This document shows positions 2-9,932 of a stretch of DNA of 64,000 nucleotides, piece after piece. The DNA is taken from the NCBI GenBank assembly GCA_965242965.1, contig OZ251518.1, forward strand, positions 3,264,001 through 3,328,000. Direction: 5' to 3'. Source of the stretch: Candidatus Poribacteria bacterium. Lineage in GTDB: Bacteria; Poribacteria; WGA-4E; WGA-3G. A program made the translations under genes and the position numbers. Below the pieces are notes generated by a model that was not told where the DNA came from, did no database searches, and saw nothing but the letters and a program-made list of their open reading frames with translations. How positions within the stretch are numbered: position 1 is the first letter of the stretch; each line of letters starts with the position of its first letter.

Positions 2-814
2 ATGTTCGGCGATGCGCTTGAACAAACCGTCGATGCGGAGCAGTGCCTTGTCGGCAATTGTGTCGCCGCTCCGAATGAGTTGTCCTGTCATCGGCCGCTG
101 GTTTGCATCGACAGGATACCATTTACCGCCCGTTTCATCGGTGAGTTCCGCTTGCACCTTTTCGCTGATGCCGATGAAATTGAGGTGGACGTTATTTTGC
201 TGGCACAAGGCGATGAGCTGCGCGGCAACCTTGTTTTTCGCCTTCGCTTCGGGCCACGAGGTGCGCATCCGTGAATTGCTCACCACGATGAACTGCGTGG
301 CGACATCCTCGCGGAAGTCGAATTCGTTCAAACCTTTCATGAGCGCGTCTAATCCGTGTCCGGAATTAACGTTATTACCGGATTCAACGCGCATTCGCCG
401 CAGCGCATCCTCAACGCCGAGGTAGTCTAACTGCCACTGATGCAGCGAGACTTGCGGTTCACCCTGCACCATTTGAAATTCGACGAGGGCAAAGCGGTAG
501 TCCATCGTTTTTGCTTCTATCACGCCGAGCATCGCCACAAGGTGCTTCTCTAGTGCCGCGATGATGCTGTTCATGCGCCAGCCGCCATCAACGACGAACA
601 CCACGTCCACTTTCGGATTTTCGGCGTATTGCATCGCACGCTTGGCGATATCCTTAAGGTTTTTGCCGATATCTACCGTGAACGTCTTCTCTTGTTTCGC
701 ATCGGGGTTCACCAGCATACGATGTCGCCGTCGGGGCGGCTGCACTTGTGCTGTCGCCGCCAGCGTTCCACCGATGAACAGGCTCACTGTGAACAGTAAA
801 ATCCAATGTTTCAT
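2..814 (-). CDS. Secreted VWA-domain protein (partial, runs off window start)
   Basis: Translated by hand (not in ORF track): ATG at 814 after AAGGGAGA RBS; signal peptide MKHWILLFTVSLFIGG; VWA-like DVVFVVDGG...YRFALVEF...GLDALMKGL...FIVVSNS...TGGKWY; open to window edge. Confidence 0.7.
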   Translation of the reverse strand, partial: MKHWILLFTVSLFIGGTLAATAQVQPPRRRHRMLVNPDAKQEKTFTVDIGKNLKDIAKRAMQYAENPKVDVVFVVDGGWRMNSIIAALEKHLVAMLGVIEAKTMDYRFALVEFQMVQGEPQVSLHQWQLDYLGVEDALRRMRVESGNNVNSGHGLDALMKGLNEFDFREDVATQFIVVSNSRMRTSWPEAKAKNKVAAQLIALCQQNNVHLNFIGISEKVQAELTDETGGKWYPVDANQRPMTGQLIRSGDTIADKALLRIDGLFKRIAEH

Positions 815-830
815 GAAGTCTCCCTTATGG

Positions 831-2387
831 CTAAAATTCCACCAAAAGCTGTGGAATGATTGCCGCGCTGCGCGTCGATTTTTCGACGTTGTTGATTTGG
901 TAAACGAGCCGTGCCAGCGCGCCCTCCGCAAAATGCCACGTCAATGCGCCACCGAGGGTTGTCCACACCTCATCTTCAGGTGTTCGGTTCAAAAATGTGC
1001 CATATTTTCCCGTGTTTGGATTCCATAGATCATATTTTAACCGAACATCTAGGGTTTCTGTCAACGGAATTTCGGCGTGCAGATAGTAACCTGTCACCGT
1101 TGCATCGCGTTCACCTATTTCATTCGGATTTGGCGCGTATTTTAAAAGTAGCGTATCGGTGCCGCGCGTCCACTCCGCCGCAATGTCCACTCGCCAGATT
1201 TTGAAATTTGTCGCCACGCCGACGCGGCGTTTATAGACGAGCGTTGATGGATTTACATCGCCGTTAACCGGATTGAAGGGATAGCTGTTGCCATCAAAGT
1301 AAGACGTGCCGAGCCAGATGCGCTTGCCTAAAAGCGACAGGCTTCCATTGAGATGGAGAAACACAGGCGGGCTGTTATTGCGAATCGGTTTCAAAACGCC
1401 ACCGCCACTCCCGTGCGGCCCGATGCGGATGCCGGATACGACAGTTCCATCTGTTACGGTGCGGAGTGAATCGGGGCCGTCCGCGAGGGACAGCACATAC
1501 GCGACAGGACCGACATAGCCGTTGAGTTGCATTCCCCGGTCGGAAATAAAACCGATATTCTTGCGGACGAGGTTATAGAGAGGGTTCGCGGCGGCATCCG
1601 ATTTGGTATCAATGCCGAAGGTGTGCCGAAATCGCCCTATTTTGAGCGACGCGCCCTTCGGTAAAACCGGCAGTCCTGTCAGAATGGCGTAAACGAACCC
1701 GTGGTCATCGGCAACCTGCGTTCCAAGCGGAGAAGTCGTCAGTAACTGCTCACCTAATACGCTGATATGTTCGCCGACACTCGTCGTCATGACGAATTCG
1801 GCGACGTGGATGAGCGTTGTGCCGGTGTGCCAGTTACCGCGGTCTGGCAGTAAATCTTGTCCACGCGTGATGCGGCGGATATCCAACGCGCCGCCGAAGA
1901 CAAGGTTTCCGAAGGCATCGCTGAGGAGACTCGCGCCGCCTGTATCTTCGCTATCCGCGGCCGGTTCGTCAAAACTAAATATATTTTCATCGTCAAATGC
2001 CACTTCATCGTCATCGTCAGATTCTTCGGCATCAGCGGCAGCCGGCTGCACGGTTTCGGGTGTGCTAGCGGCATCGCCTGGCTGGGCGCGAGCGACAATT
2101 TCCACGATATTGCTGAATCCGTCTTTATCAGAGTCCTCCTCTTCAATGCGAGTGAAGGTGGACATATTCATCCCGTTGTGTAGGAACGCCTTGCCGTAGG
2201 GGTTCGGTGCGTCGCCGCCTTTTTTCGAGAAATGGCAGACGTTGCACCCACCGGCCCATCCATATTTGGCGCGGAACATTTTGTAGAACGCCGGCAAAGC
2301 GGAGGTTTCAGAATATTCGGCGATGCCGCCACAGAAGAGGAAAGTTAAGAATAAAATTAAGATTGTTTTTCGCATAATGGTATCCAT
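831..2387 (-). CDS. Monoheme cytochrome c fused to outer-membrane beta-barrel (Cyc2-like architecture)
   Basis: Signal peptide; ALPAF...CNVCH...NPYGKAF heme motif; DSDKDGFSN Ca-loop; acidic linker; amphipathic beta-strands; C-terminal Phe (LLVEF). Confidence 0.7.
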   Translation of the reverse strand: MDTIMRKTILILFLTFLFCGGIAEYSETSALPAFYKMFRAKYGWAGGCNVCHFSKKGGDAPNPYGKAFLHNGMNMSTFTRIEEEDSDKDGFSNIVEIVARAQPGDAASTPETVQPAAADAEESDDDDEVAFDDENIFSFDEPAADSEDTGGASLLSDAFGNLVFGGALDIRRITRGQDLLPDRGNWHTGTTLIHVAEFVMTTSVGEHISVLGEQLLTTSPLGTQVADDHGFVYAILTGLPVLPKGASLKIGRFRHTFGIDTKSDAAANPLYNLVRKNIGFISDRGMQLNGYVGPVAYVLSLADGPDSLRTVTDGTVVSGIRIGPHGSGGGVLKPIRNNSPPVFLHLNGSLSLLGKRIWLGTSYFDGNSYPFNPVNGDVNPSTLVYKRRVGVATNFKIWRVDIAAEWTRGTDTLLLKYAPNPNEIGERDATVTGYYLHAEIPLTETLDVRLKYDLWNPNTGKYGTFLNRTPEDEVWTTLGGALTWHFAEGALARLVYQINNVEKSTRSAAIIPQLLVEF

Positions 2388-2433
2388 TTATCGTAGGGCA
2401 AGGGACGAGCCCTCACCCTATCAAACGCGAGGT

Positions 2434-3426
2434 TTAATATGCCTCCAGTTCGATCTCCTTCCCACTAAACCGGTGGTGCGCCTGATTGACGAGCTCCTCA
2501 ATAGTTTCCCACTGCGCGCGCGTCTCATCGGAAATGCCCTCTTTTTCTAGGGCATCAGCGAACTGCGTAAGCGTCTCGACAAACTCCCCCTGCAAGGCGG
2601 CGTATGCCTCTGTCTGTTCAGTGTTCGCTGGCGGTTCAAAATCCGCGATACGCTTCGCGTAGGTAACCAACTGCTCGGCGGCAGCGACGGCTTTCGCCTT
2701 GTCCTCGCCTGCGTCAAAGTAGTCGGCAATCTCAAGATAGGCATCCAGCATCAACATCATGAGTTCACCCAGGTCTTCGATTTCCGGTGGTGCGGTATCG
2801 GGAGCAGGAGTCTTTCCCGATGCATCGGGAGCCGAGGACTCTTTTACCGGCTTCGGTTTCCGTTTGAGGAAGAGGGCGTAACTCATCGCCAGCGTCTTTT
2901 TCGGGAGCAAGGCGACTGCTTCCGATGCGGCCTCGTGTCCTTCAACGGCTGTCACATCCTCGCCGATACTGAAAGGGCTATCAATATCCATGCCGATAAA
3001 CTGTTCCAGGAACTTATCTGCTGTGATAGCATCCGATTCATTGTGGTTGTAAACCTTAACCTTCACCACTTTGCCTTTCATGTCCAGTCCGACTGCGCCG
3101 TCAATAACGCCCCGCGGTCCTTGCACATCAACGAACAGCACCAGTCCCATCGGTTTCTTTTTTTCGTTCATTGGGATGTAGAAAATCGGCTTCTGGTCTT
3201 CGGCGCGAAGCTTAGTGCCTAATTCCTTCTCAACGGCGGCACTCTTCGCCGGGGTAAGCACGGCACTCCGTTGAACGAATTTCTTCGCCTTCGGGAAGAT
3301 AGATGCGAGTTTCTGCCCCGGCCATTCTGTTTCATGCGCCGTGGCGCGCGGGGAAAGCGCGATGCCGAGAAGTAGTAGCACGAGAAGCGTGCCCGTGCTA
3401 GCGGCGCGATAAATTCGAGAAAACAT
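2434..3426 (-). CDS. Exported FMN-binding-domain-like protein with C-terminal four-helix (cytochrome b562/c'-like) domain
   Basis: ATG 3426 after AAAGGA; signal peptide; GPRGVIDGAVGLDMKGKVVKVKV...FLEQFIG pattern of FMN_bind; helical C-terminus ending LVNQAHHRF. Confidence 0.6.
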   Translation of the reverse strand: MFSRIYRAASTGTLLVLLLLGIALSPRATAHETEWPGQKLASIFPKAKKFVQRSAVLTPAKSAAVEKELGTKLRAEDQKPIFYIPMNEKKKPMGLVLFVDVQGPRGVIDGAVGLDMKGKVVKVKVYNHNESDAITADKFLEQFIGMDIDSPFSIGEDVTAVEGHEAASEAVALLPKKTLAMSYALFLKRKPKPVKESSAPDASGKTPAPDTAPPEIEDLGELMMLMLDAYLEIADYFDAGEDKAKAVAAAEQLVTYAKRIADFEPPANTEQTEAYAALQGEFVETLTQFADALEKEGISDETRAQWETIEELVNQAHHRFSGKEIELEAY

Positions 3427-3553
3427 CTGTAATTTCCTTTTGAGTGATTCACCCCGGAGGCGCGCTTGCAAAGCGCGCCTACCGGAGAGATTCTACATAG
3501 CAATGTCCGCTGCGGCGTTTTTGTTCCTTACTACGCCGCGCGAACGACAAAAA

Positions 3554-4561
3554 TTATTCCACTTCAACCATGAAACTCAGCCAGATAATCCTATCTTCAT
3601 GCTTGAGTTGTCCGAAGATTTGGTAAATGCCGGACTGCGGAAACGTTGTCATCAGATTCACGGTGGGCCCGAATGTATCGGGCAGCGTCCCGTGGTGCTC
3701 GTGGCCGCTGGAAGCGGGCTTCTGATGTGCTGCATGTTCGTTATGCTGCATCATTTTATGGCCCGCGTGCGGGTCTGGCACGATGCCGTGTGTATGGATA
3801 ACACCGTCCAAGCGCGAGCTCACAATTGCGAAGTGCATCGGCGCATCCAAAAACGGCACCAGGTCTTTGAGCGGTTTCCCATCGCGCGAAAAATGGTAGG
3901 CGATGTGAACCGTCTCACCCGCTTGAATCCGGTCGGGTGCATCCATTTTAACGTGATACACTGCATCGGAATTACCGTCGGTTAACGATACCGCTTTTGT
4001 GTACCGGTCACCGCCTTCATCGGTATAACCGAAAACCTGCTTTTCTGTCCGAAAATCGCTTGCCATTTCAGCCATTTTCAGTTCGCCAGTGACATTGACG
4101 TAGACATATTTGGCGAATTCTGCGTCCGCTGTCATCACGTCAACGGCGAGGATGTAGCGGCCGGCGGCAGGGAACGTGAAGTAGACGGTATAGCGTCCGT
4201 CCAGTTCGTCCATCAAGTCGCGAGTTTCAAAATCTTCGGGGTGAACGTGCCCGATGATACCTAAATTCTCGCTGACGATGAGGACATGGAGCACCCGCGC
4301 GTGATGCACCATCAGGTCTGTGACAGGTTCGCCGTTTGCATCGGTGAGGTGGAACGTGAGTTTCGTGGACGTTCCAACCTGAGCAATTTCCGGTTCGCTG
4401 TGCAGCATGACATTGATGGCCGCGGCTGTATCAGCCTGATGTGCGCGGTGCGCGTCGTGGCCCGCGTGTTCTTCGGCGAAACTCATCCCGATGAGGGAGA
4501 GAAAGCCGAGGGTGACTATCGCCAACACGGCGATAGCGTTCTTGGTTTTTCTGGGTTGCAT
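3554..4561 (-). CDS. His-rich exported heavy-metal-binding protein (duplicated YtkA-like Ig domains)
   Basis: ATG 4561 after GGAGG; signal peptide; repeated HVLIVS...HVHP / MHFAIVS...HTH and TFP..G.Y motifs; His-rich segments. Confidence 0.7.
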   Translation of the reverse strand: MQPRKTKNAIAVLAIVTLGFLSLIGMSFAEEHAGHDAHRAHQADTAAAINVMLHSEPEIAQVGTSTKLTFHLTDANGEPVTDLMVHHARVLHVLIVSENLGIIGHVHPEDFETRDLMDELDGRYTVYFTFPAAGRYILAVDVMTADAEFAKYVYVNVTGELKMAEMASDFRTEKQVFGYTDEGGDRYTKAVSLTDGNSDAVYHVKMDAPDRIQAGETVHIAYHFSRDGKPLKDLVPFLDAPMHFAIVSSRLDGVIHTHGIVPDPHAGHKMMQHNEHAAHQKPASSGHEHHGTLPDTFGPTVNLMTTFPQSGIYQIFGQLKHEDRIIWLSFMVEVE

Positions 4562-4748
4562 TGTTATTGCCTCCGTTCTGTTTAACCCGTTTAATTCATA
4601 AGGATTTACGCATGACAAACCCGGTAGGTATGCCCCTACGGAATGGGAATTTACGTAAGTCCTATCTATTAAAAGTTGCGCGCGAGTTCCATAGCACGAG
4701 GAACCCGTGCGTAAAAAGAGAAAGAGAAGCGCGCGGAAAAAGCGCGAC

Positions 4749-5162
4749 TTAACAACGGGTAAACGGCGGCCCCCGGCGGGATAGGGAGTAACTCGGGGGG
4801 GCAGGATATAGGATATGAGGCGGCAATGGGAGTGCGCGAGAAATCTGCGGCACAACCGGCGCAATCACGGTATCGCGCTCGCTGAGCATGCCTGTCGGAT
4901 TGAGAGGCAGTTCGTGCCTATTGAAGGTATCATCTGCTGGAAAAACCAGTTTCAGTTCGATGATGCAGCACAACTCGCCATTTTCGGGTGGCGTTTCAGA
5001 TTCCGCTGCTGCTTCAGTCTTTTGGCAGCAAGCGGCTTGCGCCTCTGTCTGCTCGCTGTGGCACAACTTCTGTTCCAAAGTTGCACAGAGAAGCGGGCAG
5101 ACGGTATAGACGTAGACGATGCCCATGATGACGATGAAAAACTGCCGGTGTTTTCGTAACAT
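4749..5162 (-). CDS. Cys-rich DUF2946-like leader protein ending in RGPP (putative arrest peptide)
   Basis: N-terminal hydrophobic segment, CPLLC/CC/CC cysteines, Pro-rich tail ...SLSRRGPP. Confidence 0.65.
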   Translation of the reverse strand: MLRKHRQFFIVIMGIVYVYTVCPLLCATLEQKLCHSEQTEAQAACCQKTEAAAESETPPENGELCCIIELKLVFPADDTFNRHELPLNPTGMLSERDTVIAPVVPQISRALPLPPHILYPAPPSYSLSRRGPPFTRC

Positions 5163-5332: not shown

Positions 5333-5608
5333 ATGAAGACAGAACCAATCCAACTCCAATTCTACACGAAGCCGGATTGCCCGCTGTGTGATGAGGCGAA
5401 ATCAGTGTTGGAAAGCCTCGTGGCGAAGGCACCGAGGTTTGAGGTTGAAGATATTGACATCACCCGGAATCTTGGGTTGTTTACGAAGTATAAAAATCTG
5501 ATTCCGGTTCTTGAGATGGATGGGAAGCGACTTTTCGTCCATCGGATCGGGCGGCGGCAGTTGCTGCTGCAGTTGCGCTGGCACCGGTTACGGAAATACT
5601 TAACCTGA
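5333..5608 (+). CDS. Glutaredoxin-like protein (DUF836)
   Basis: FYTKPDCPLCDEAK...DI...IPVL motif. Confidence 0.85.
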   Translation: MKTEPIQLQFYTKPDCPLCDEAKSVLESLVAKAPRFEVEDIDITRNLGLFTKYKNLIPVLEMDGKRLFVHRIGRRQLLLQLRWHRLRKYLT

Positions 5609-8516: not shown

Positions 8517-8963
8517 GAGGGTGTTTCATAAATCGCTCAACGTCGCGGTGATAGGCCCCGCGCTACGGTGAAAAAAAACGCCACCCCTTCACGTAGGGCG
8601 AGGGCCTATCCCTCGCCATGCTGCGCTCTACCGGACATTCGCGGGGGAAACCCTCTCGGATGCGCGTATGGCATCCGAGGGGCCCCGCGCTACGGTAACG
8701 TGAGGTGTTCTTGGCAGCAGCACGGCCGCCTTCATCGTAAGGCGAGGGCCTGTCCCTCGCCGTGCACAGGTCTATCAAAAACCTCTTTTAGGTCCGTAGG
8801 ACCTGAATGTCTATAGAAAAACGTGCCGCACCCTATCAAGGTCCGTAGGACCTTAATAAGGTTTATAGTGTTGTTGCATCGAGACCGGGAGGTCTCTCCT
8901 ACGGTGAGCAATCGAGACCAGGAGGTCTCTCCTACCGGACACATCGAAATATGAAACACCCTG
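8517..8963. mobile_element. MITE-like element, 12-bp TSD AGGTTAATAACT
   Basis: GAGGGTGTTTCATA...TATGAAACACCCTG; direct repeat 8505-8516 / 8964-8975. Confidence 0.85.
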
Positions 8964-8966
8964 AGG

Positions 8967-9932
8967 TTAATAACTCCGCAGGATAGTCCCGTTCGCGCCG
9001 ACGAGCCACCCTGCATTTTTGGCGAGATAGATGTCCTGCAAATTGTGTTGCGTCGGCGAAGGGTAACGGTTCCATGTCGTGCCGCCATCGGTAGTGTGCA
9101 AGATAAGTCCCTTCTCACCGACTGCCCACCCCGTCGTCTCATTGTGAAACGCCACATCGCGCAGGTGCTGTTTCAGGGGATTCTTTTGCCGATGCCACGC
9201 CTGGCCACCATCGGTAGTATGAAGAATCAACCCATTCGTTCCGACAATCCATCCGTGCTTTAGGGTTGCGAAATGGACAGCGAATAGCGGCTGCTCAACA
9301 CCACTTTGCTGTGGAATCCACTGCTTGCCGCGGTTTTTCGTCCAAAGCACCTCTCCCTCTTCGCCGACAATCCACCCGTGCTGGTTGTCAACGAAATGAA
9401 CTCCCCACAGGTGTTTTTCGGAGGGGCTCCGCTGATGTTCCCATCGGATGCCGCCGGTTTCCGTATGGAGAATCGTGCCTTTCCCACCGACTGCCCATCC
9501 CTCCGTTGTGCTGACGAAATGCAAATCGAGAAGCCCATGCTTTGTGTTTGCACCTTGTGCATTCCACGAAATGCCACCGCTACCGGTATAAAGCACCGTC
9601 CCAATGCTGGTAAGCCAGCCGTTGTTCGGCGTTGTGAAGTGCACCTGCGTCAGCGCGCTTTTTGCAATGGAGGTGGATGCCCAGTTCGTCCCACCGTCCT
9701 CGGTGGATAAGACAACGCCATCCGTGCCGACTGCCCATCCGCGATTCGCATCGACGAAGTGTACCCCATAGAGATGCGCTTCTGTACCGCTTGATAGTTG
9801 TTTCCACTCAAATTGCACCGCATCTTCGGAGCAACCGAGGAACGCGATGCTGCCGCATAAGATTATGAGTGCAAGTCGGAACGATTGCCTGAGTGCGACT
9901 TTCCTTTGAAAGCCGATTTTTAATGTCGCCAT
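8967..9932 (-). CDS. YCF48-like / BNR-repeat beta-propeller lipoprotein
   Basis: Repeats L.xVHF....GW.VG..G.IL.T.DGG..W; lipobox FLGC. Confidence 0.9.
   Translation of the reverse strand: MATLKIGFQRKVALRQSFRLALIILCGSIAFLGCSEDAVQFEWKQLSSGTEAHLYGVHFVDANRGWAVGTDGVVLSTEDGGTNWASTSIAKSALTQVHFTTPNNGWLTSIGTVLYTGSGGISWNAQGANTKHGLLDLHFVSTTEGWAVGGKGTILHTETGGIRWEHQRSPSEKHLWGVHFVDNQHGWIVGEEGEVLWTKNRGKQWIPQQSGVEQPLFAVHFATLKHGWIVGTNGLILHTTDGGQAWHRQKNPLKQHLRDVAFHNETTGWAVGEKGLILHTTDGGTTWNRYPSPTQHNLQDIYLAKNAGWLVGANGTILRSY

Follow-up and report, generated by a model that had tools for sequence, protein, structure and literature searches.

A conserved cysteine-rich leader of sponge-associated Poribacteria with a C-terminal R-G-P-P motif is most likely a nascent-chain copper sensor ahead of metal-handling operons

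In the genome of a Candidatus Poribacteria bacterium (assembly GCA_965242965.1), positions 3,264,001-3,328,000 of contig OZ251518.1, a stretch of 64,000 nucleotides (nt) termed here the window in its whole length, carry on the minus strand (5162..4749) an open reading frame (ORF) for a protein of 137 amino acids, which is the first gene ahead of four exported proteins and is designated the leader. Judged from its conservation, the leader is a real, conserved gene, and its motif, its cysteine (Cys) residues and the length of its approximately 65-residue spacer are, according to the alignments, under selection. By gene order, it always heads metal-handling operons. The leader is most likely a nascent-chain copper sensor working like CutF, with stalling, ligand and the sign of the response as predictions. 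We consider it probable that the leader is a cis-acting regulator, a membrane-inserted Cys-rich nascent chain of which the Arg-Gly-Pro-Pro (RGPP) motif would stall its own ribosome, with metal, likely Cu(I), turning expression of the subsequent genes on. The elements of the leader are the following.

4749..5162, minus strand: leader ORF, 137 amino acids, with N-terminal membrane segment, conserved Cys residues and S-x-R-G-P-P plus four residues (ORF, alignments)
5085..5141, minus strand: codons of residues 8-26, hydrophobic segment containing C22-P23-x-x-C26 (hydropathy; conservation in 28 sequences)
5025..5030, minus strand: codons of Cys45-Cys46, an invariant pair (alignment; pair-to-Arg spacing 81-88 residues)
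4965..4970, minus strand: codons of Cys65-Cys66 (63-66 residues before the motif Arg in 82/82 relatives with two CC pairs)
4764..4775, minus strand: codons of Arg130-Gly131-Pro132-Pro133 (CGG GGG CCG CCG), putative arrest site (conservation, codon variation)

The protein begins with MLRKHRQ, followed by a 19-residue hydrophobic segment (residues 8-26; mean Kyte-Doolittle value 2.37) and an acidic Cys-rich part, and its eight Cys residues are located at positions 22, 26, 34, 45, 46, 65, 66 and 137. The C-P-x motif inside the membrane segment is reminiscent of the CPC site of copper-pumping ATPases. The C-terminus reads ...LSRRGPPFTRC; a previous reading of the stretch by a model from the letters alone (the sequence-only reading) had described a Cys-rich leader ending in RRGPP, which is correct for the Cys residues and the motif, but not for its placement at the very end, as four residues separate RGPP from the stop.

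A word-indexed search recovered 29 leader homologues with 38-97% identity, in the alignment of which C22, P23, C26, C34, C45, C46, C65, C66, L127, R130, G131, P132 and P133 are invariant; in an alignment of 28 sequences, P23 and C26 are invariant and C22 is present in at least 90%. Scanning one genome per species provided 58 leader loci, every one of them with a Poribacteria title, which together with the window make up a set of 59 loci. In this set, the motif is RGPP in 58 cases and RAPP in one (L030), and the tail beyond it varies, with one protein stopping exactly at RGPP. A hidden Markov model (HMM) search with the family profile against 1.84 billion representatives returned just 23 proteins at E ≤ 0.001, and the distant relatives (23-29% identity) retain C-P-x-x-C, both CC pairs and a C-terminal RAPP or RGPP, with RGTP in one of them. 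Altogether, 84 distinct relatives show RGPP (77), RAPP (6) or RGTP (1), such that R[G/A]PP is found in 83/84, followed by a tail of 0-5 residues. At all four motif positions, synonymous codons vary in the 59 loci (Arg with five codons, Gly with four, Pro132 with three and Pro133 with four), which shows that it is the peptide that is under selection. The last CC pair stands exactly 65 residues ahead of the Arg in 60 of the 82 sequences with two CC pairs, and the stretch from this pair to the motif is fixed in length and poorly conserved in sequence; C-P-x-x-C is located 102-125 residues before the Arg.

Among arrest cores, RAPP and RGPP are reported to be the most robust ones and to resist EF-P, and for CruR arrest has been shown in vitro, the P and A sites being occupied by the two Pro codons (PMC12992588). 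The leader might, on the other hand, be a plain small membrane metal-binding component, a chaperone or CzcI-like factor, in which RGPP has a structural role and no regulatory stall occurs. The good conservation of the N-terminal 70 residues, an ORF length exceeding that of classical leader peptides and the occurrence of CzcI-type DUF2946 relatives without the Pro motif upstream of czcCBA (PMC9973294) would agree with such a role. We nevertheless regard it as quite unlikely, as, the single RGTP apart, Gly to Ala is the sole tolerated motif change and gives the other strong arrest core, the motif invariably lies 0-5 residues from the C-terminal end, the region from the last CC pair to the motif keeps its length and not its sequence, and RAPP-like motifs are reportedly strongly avoided in ordinary proteins (PMC12992588).

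The genes behind the leader point to metal. ORFs of the 59 loci were clustered and the clusters named by Pfam. In 39/59 loci a Cus-type operon follows, encoding a His/Met-rich protein with a YHS domain, one or two TolC-like proteins, a CusB-like adaptor with four heavy-metal-binding (HMBD) repeats and CusA, and 17/59 loci carry a module of genes for a His-rich, an FMN_bind-like, a cytochrome-porin and a VWA protein, the first three genes of which are all present in 13 loci, the window included; the remaining 3/59 loci stop early or continue differently. A gene for 311 amino acids, c2, is inserted between the leader and either operon in 54/59 loci; it is not there in the window or its congener L001. 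Among 21 relatives, the leader was found in 17 and the cytochrome-porin gene in eight, and each of the eight copies of the latter has a leader 2.2-3.5 kb upstream in the same orientation; two leaders occur in one genome (G008). It is the synteny with Cus genes that points to copper or silver as the signal. As the sequence-only reading had expected, the gene order with metal genes is thus conserved and the motif persists in orthologues. Consequently, neither of the two sequence-based observations named there as speaking against it, loss of RGPP in orthologues and loss of synteny, was made. Its proposal of a different output is new only in part, for the cytochrome-porin module; most members of the family, though, head resistance-nodulation-division (RND) efflux of the Cus type, and RAPP upstream ORFs ahead of RND efflux genes have been tabulated, with RND efflux among the enriched downstream classes (Fujiwara et al., 2025, supplement file 8), so the efflux output is not new.

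The same genes and the Cys residues can be viewed from another angle, namely that the signal read by the nascent chain is thiol redox state or the formation of disulfides instead of metal, with periplasmic oxidation of the Cys pairs pulling or holding the chain and thereby setting the length of the stall. Seven conserved Cys residues arranged as C-P-x-x-C and two CC pairs, a cytochrome within the module and the C-P-A-TGA, potentially a CxxU redox motif, of c2 as the gene that usually comes next would be in line with this idea, as would the reported RAPP/RGPP leaders ahead of thioredoxin/DsbA genes (PMC12992588) and the divergent glutaredoxin-like gene adjoining the leader in the window (5333-5608, plus strand; PF05768, E 1.3e-17). 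However, a glutaredoxin-like neighbour is present among the 58 loci only at the same-genus locus L001, and the commonest neighbours, the YHS domain protein, CusB with its four HMBD repeats and CusA, are copper/silver-specific, which makes redox sensing, in our assessment, very unlikely.

The leader family is confined to Poribacteria and is found in 144/176 genomes of a search through the phylum, all within four families (109/111, 10/11, 23/29 and 1/7 genomes, respectively), and in 0/17 genomes of the remaining seven families. It is mostly single-copy, with one copy in the genome of the window. The sequence-only reading had pointed to DUF2946 as the related family, an assignment that fails, as 0/28 family members match the DUF2946 model PF11162 at E ≤ 10, and two DUF2946-like proteins of related Poribacteria (L060 and L062), as positive controls, score 24.3 and 22.4 bits. 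Neither Pfam nor NCBIfam contains a family matching the window leader even at E ≤ 1, and the family search picked up the leader loci in 0/21 relatives. Profile-profile comparison by hhalign of the leader family with DUF2946-like proteins aligned only nine C-terminal columns with a probability of 0.69%, the DUF2946 side consisting of five Poribacterial sequences; this comparison alignment is thin, as a homologue search with a Poribacterial DUF2946-like protein gave three matches. Traits of DUF2946-like leaders that recur are the C-terminal RAPP-type motif, an export signal, the first position in a copper-related operon and a long spacer; the CXXC/CxxxC in the mature part approximately 45 residues before RAPP does not. 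Of the RAPP/RGPP arrest-peptide class, the leader shows the sequence traits, with R-[A/G]-P-P close to the C-terminal end and a small (<300 amino acids) membrane or secreted protein encoded co-oriented upstream of the gene presumed to be regulated. By these profile comparisons, the leader family is not DUF2946, but an analogous new family.

DUF6769, the name attached to one ESM Atlas cluster, was dismissed, with just 1/28 members matching at E 0.068 and the only paper with the term being unrelated by title and abstract; other ESM Atlas matches of the leader are unnamed clusters. A metagenome scan with the window leader produced only two spurious loci. True DUF2946-like leaders exist separately in other Poribacteria (L060:1486-1836, minus strand; L062:1390-1740, plus strand), where they possess a His-Glu repeat, CAAC and a C-terminal RSRAPP and adjoin a gene for a His/Asp-rich lipoprotein-like protein.

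Stalling-based nascent-chain metal sensors have been recognized only between 2022 and 2025, with two studied proteins, both of DUF2946. The kind of regulator proposed here is already published, as CruR (2022), CutF (2023, 2025) and a genome-wide RAPP/RGPP class (2025), and the sequence-only reading had cited the CruR and CutF precedents correctly (PMC9426467; PMC9973294). Copper acts on CruR by releasing the stall, upon which transcription is ended by Rho (PMC9426467); for CutF, it is proposed that copper bound on the periplasmic side makes the stall last longer and that the stalled ribosome unfolds a stem-loop masking the Shine-Dalgarno (SD) sequence of the next gene (PMC9973294; bioRxiv 10.1101/2025.02.05.636593). 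The genome-wide class comprises small secreted or membrane proteins with RAPP/RGPP upstream of metal genes, seven Streptomyces examples of which arrest (Fujiwara et al., 2025, EMBO J, PMC12992588).

CutF of Rhodobacter capsulatus, a DUF2946 protein encoded by cutFOG, resembles the leader as an exported protein with a Cys motif (CxxxC in CutF), a C-terminal Pro-rich stalling motif and the position as first gene of a copper detoxification operon, in the proposed stall-driven opening of an SD-hiding mRNA structure and in the sensing of copper on the periplasmic side during co-translational export, which is proposed here as well. In contrast to CutF, the leader has no DUF2946 match, holds C-P-x-x-C in a membrane anchor and has two CC pairs where CutF has a cleaved signal peptide and one CxxxC, and ends in RGPP instead of a PPP-type motif; the predicted masking helix is long-range, closing a spacer of 114-277 nt with the stall codons as one strand, and the output is the cytochrome-porin module or Cus efflux in place of a multicopper oxidase. 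With CruR (Bp2923) of Bordetella pertussis, the DUF2946 prototype, the leader shares R-[A/G]-P-P few residues before the stop (R-A-P-P in CruR), a Cys motif at a fixed distance, the first position in a copper-related operon and a long spacer (PMC9426467). The two differ in that the CXXC of CruR is located 45 residues before RAPP and the last CC here at 63-66, in the independence of CruR from a signal peptide, its Rho termination and its control of a TonB-dependent importer repressed by copper (PMC9426467), and in the lack of homology by HMM or profile-profile comparison. The class of Fujiwara et al. (2025) likewise comprises small membrane proteins in which RGPP is located close to the C-terminal end and which are encoded ahead of genes for metal homeostasis (PMC12992588). 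In the covered portion of that work (main text and supplements except file 10, with file 8 in part) the term "Poribacteria" has no occurrence, and the Cys architecture, the 65-residue spacing and a cytochrome-porin output are not described; none of the papers on Poribacteria and copper efflux viewed by title and abstract concerns this system.

New here are the protein family, the Cys architecture with its 65-residue spacing, the predicted long-range stall-codon helix and the cytochrome-porin module as output. The leader adds another protein family, unrelated to DUF2946, that would follow the same logic; almost all sponge-associated Poribacteria carry it, mostly as a single copy. This suggests that the device has evolved more than once. 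It also creates a natural comparison set, in which the stall motif is unchanged, the ligand architecture differs, the ruler has 65 instead of 45 residues and two alternative outputs occur.

A possible route from stall to expression emerges from the predicted fold of the RNA between the Arg codon and the beginning of the His-rich gene. This gene starts with ATG at 4561, preceded by GGAGG at 4574..4570, and is separated from the leader by a spacer of 187 nt. The predicted elements of the folded region are the following.

4754..4773, minus strand: 5' strand of a long-range helix, stall-site codons plus the next 10 bases (folding; pair probabilities 0.89-1.0 for 16/19 pairs)
4569..4591, minus strand: 3' strand of the long-range helix, including the SD GGAGG (4574..4570) of the His-rich gene (folding)
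4713..4746, minus strand: terminator-like GC hairpin CGCGC-UUUUUCC-GCGCG (4746..4730), two bases past the stop, then a U/C-rich tract (stem kept and loop varied in 3/3 same-genus genomes)
4679..4711, minus strand: second hairpin GGGUUCC...GGAACUC, resembling hairpin H1 of other clades (folding)

In the predicted minimum-energy fold, the helix between 4773..4754, the codons for Gly-Pro-Pro-Phe-Thr-Arg, and 4591..4569 closes the entire spacer, and it recurs in the minimum-energy fold of 3/3 same-genus genomes with spacers of 114, 187 (window) and 277 nt; the duplex energies amount to -23.7, -25.8 and -25.9 kcal/mol. Because Pro-Pro codons resemble an anti-SD anyway, 665 start regions with GGAGG from the same genome served as controls, of which 4, 10 and 10 pair at least as strongly with the respective stall windows.

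In the mechanism that we favour, the C-terminal Arg-Gly-Pro-Pro would stall the ribosome translating the leader. With Pro132 in the P site, the footprint of this ribosome would extend over approximately 4781..4754, exactly the 5' strand of the helix. By holding this strand in its mRNA channel, the stalled ribosome would free the SD of the His-rich gene and so switch on the His-rich/cytochrome-porin/VWA module. The Cys pairs of the nascent chain, once past the membrane, are envisaged to bind a thiophilic metal, most likely Cu(I), which would prolong the stall, such that metal would mean on, as proposed for CutF. The 65-residue ruler approximately equals exit tunnel plus translocon, which would bring Cys65-Cys66 to the periplasmic face by the time RGPP is being translated. 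The predicted pairing of stall codons with a ribosome-binding site constitutes a simple, directly testable switch.

The terminator-like hairpin of the window, conserved in 3/3 same-genus genomes with its stem kept and its loop varied, invites the opposite logic of the CruR type, whereby a default stall protects the transcript and metal releases the stall, upon which Rho or the hairpin past the stop terminates transcription; metal would then mean off, which fits an uptake module. CruR itself works by release and termination (PMC9426467), a GC hairpin with a U/C tract is located right past the leader stop, and the module of the window could be one for uptake. In other clades, moreover, the 60 nt past H1 are U-rich and G-poor (12% G versus 24% in the background), with C at least twice G in 25/59 loci versus 4.4% of background windows, a tract which would also suit a Rho-loading site. 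On the other hand, the 39/59 members that head Cus-type efflux operons are expected to be metal-induced rather than repressed, the predicted SD-masking helix offers stalling a direct route to expression, and a spacing of 65 residues, against 45 in CruR (PMC9426467), is more in line with sensing on the far side of the membrane in the manner of CutF, so that termination upon release is, in our view, unlikely.

Several observations weigh against copper-prolonged stalling as the explanation. The metal is deduced only from neighbour genes of other genomes, and the genome of the window lacks a Cus/YHS operon and has its copy of c2 elsewhere. A single relative has RGTP, and the well-conserved N-terminal half might mean that the protein has a function of its own as well. 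The helix between stall codons and SD is seen only in three closely related, non-independent genomes, and Pro-Pro codons are inherently anti-SD-like; no helix was found in L068, another genus with the leader directly before the His-rich gene, where 330/665 controls are as strong, and the pairing of stall codons with the c2 start region in c2-type loci gave no signal (z near 0). The terminator-like hairpin would form even with the ribosome stalled, which, if it terminates transcription, would result in off rather than on. The spacers of other clades carry different conserved hairpins, and a search for sequencing runs with RNA covering the window stretch listed none.

These different hairpins, H1-H3, occupy the approximately 180-nt spacer between leader stop and c2 start in c2-type loci and have 88.4% of cells paired, compared to 42-57% with partners slid, with compensatory changes in 17/37 pairs. 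The inner stem of H1, which begins 19 nt past the last Pro codon, shows compensatory changes in 6/7 pairs. Block-wise folding was used for this analysis, as RNAalifold on the full spacer alignment was nearly empty; an Rfam search with five loci at E ≤ 1 gave no match. An eight-codon mini-ORF inside H2 was discarded, its start codon missing in several clades, as was a sigma-70 promoter in the spacer ahead of c2, the spacing of which, judged by eye, is not supportive.

Downstream of the leader, the window contains four further genes.

3554..4561, minus strand: His-rich exported YtkA-like protein, 335 amino acids (PF13115)
2434..3426, minus strand: exported protein with a weakly RnfG/FMN_bind-like N-terminal part and a helical C-terminal part (Pfam, NCBIfam, PDB)
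831..2387, minus strand: cytochrome c-porin fusion with a single CNVCH, an acidic linker and a barrel like that of 16-strand porins (motif, structure model, Foldseek)
2..814, minus strand: VWA-domain exported protein cut by the window edge, homologues elsewhere approximately 468 amino acids (PF00092)

All five co-oriented genes that the sequence-only reading had listed are present on the minus strand, and its labels for the His-rich, the cytochrome-barrel and the VWA protein are borne out. The His-rich protein has a signal-peptide-like N-terminus and scores 33.2 bits with PF13115 (YtkA-like; cut-off 25.9) over residues 44-82 only, and PDB profile searches with it found nothing below E 0.36. 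The truncated VWA protein reaches 27.7 bits with PF00092 (cut-off 23.8) and its full-length L017 homologue 41 bits. The label FMN_bind-like stands as a weak likeness, seen in the PDB match to RnfG at E 0.018, but every curated cut-off is missed by ORF 3426..2434, with 20.0 versus 22 bits for FMN_bind (PF04205) and 22.1 versus 102 bits for rnfG (TIGR01947). A second stretch with 72% identity to the last 116 residues of the L017 FMN_bind-like protein is located elsewhere in the genome of the window (C1:2949440-2949787).

The cytochrome-porin protein has 518 amino acids, a signal peptide and one CNVCH at residue 48, and its C-terminal approximately 360 residues are modelled as a barrel (predicted local distance difference test, pLDDT, of blocks approximately 60-83; whole model 59.4), for which Foldseek finds the 16-strand porins OmpU, OmpM1 and OprO/OprP at E approximately 1e-10. 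With signal peptide, a single CXXCH near the N-terminus and a porin-like barrel, 2387..831 is similar to Cyc2, the fused cytochrome-porin of iron-oxidising bacteria, and OprP (2o4v), a template named for Cyc2, is among its top Foldseek matches. The signatures reported for Cyc2, PxFAR[Q/K][T/Y] five residues before CXXCH and PXL four after (PMC8406198), are however not present in ...KMFRAKY-GWAGG-CNVCH-FSKK-GGD, with MFRAKY in the place of the former and no PXL. Unlike Cyc2, 2387..831 has an acidic linker of approximately 50 residues and a Ca-binding-like DSDKDG stretch, and it sits in a copper-type regulon, not in one for iron oxidation. The leader thus suggests the likely regulon, and hence a first functional clue, for three conserved Poribacterial proteins of previously unknown function, the Cyc2-like cytochrome-porin included.

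Going further, it is possible, if doubtful, that the leader represents an independently evolved trans-membrane copper sensor, with C-P-x-x-C in the membrane and two periplasmic CC pairs approximately 65 residues, or tunnel plus translocon, from RGPP, which would control a heme-based outer-membrane cytochrome-porin in place of a multicopper oxidase for copper oxidation or reduction at the surface, and in most relatives also a selenocysteine outer-membrane channel ahead of Cus efflux.

The channel refers to c2, in which all 54/54 copies (loci L003-L058, for example L017:7623-8672) carry an in-frame TGA at the same position, 53/54 reading ...QESCPA-TGA-SNP... just past the signal peptide. The copy in the genome of the window, which lies outside the window itself (C1:2884449-2885507), carries a TGA not only at the shared TGA position but also in place of the Cys codon (S-TGA-G-A-TGA-S), and this genome possesses tRNA-SeC, selB and selA. 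The structure model of c2 (pLDDT 63.4) is a 12-strand outer-membrane barrel, FapF/COG4313-like, and c2 is put forward as a candidate selenoprotein, an outer-membrane channel carrying CxxU. In one locus, an RRXRR-family gene (PF14239; L029:7776-8846) is inserted between leader and c2, which extends the spacer to approximately 1.4 kb. Positions 8541-8980 of the window consist of short interspersed repeats, with more than 900 overlapping BLAST matches in the same genome among the matches listed, and ORF translations near the c2 copy of this genome are similarly repeat-derived.

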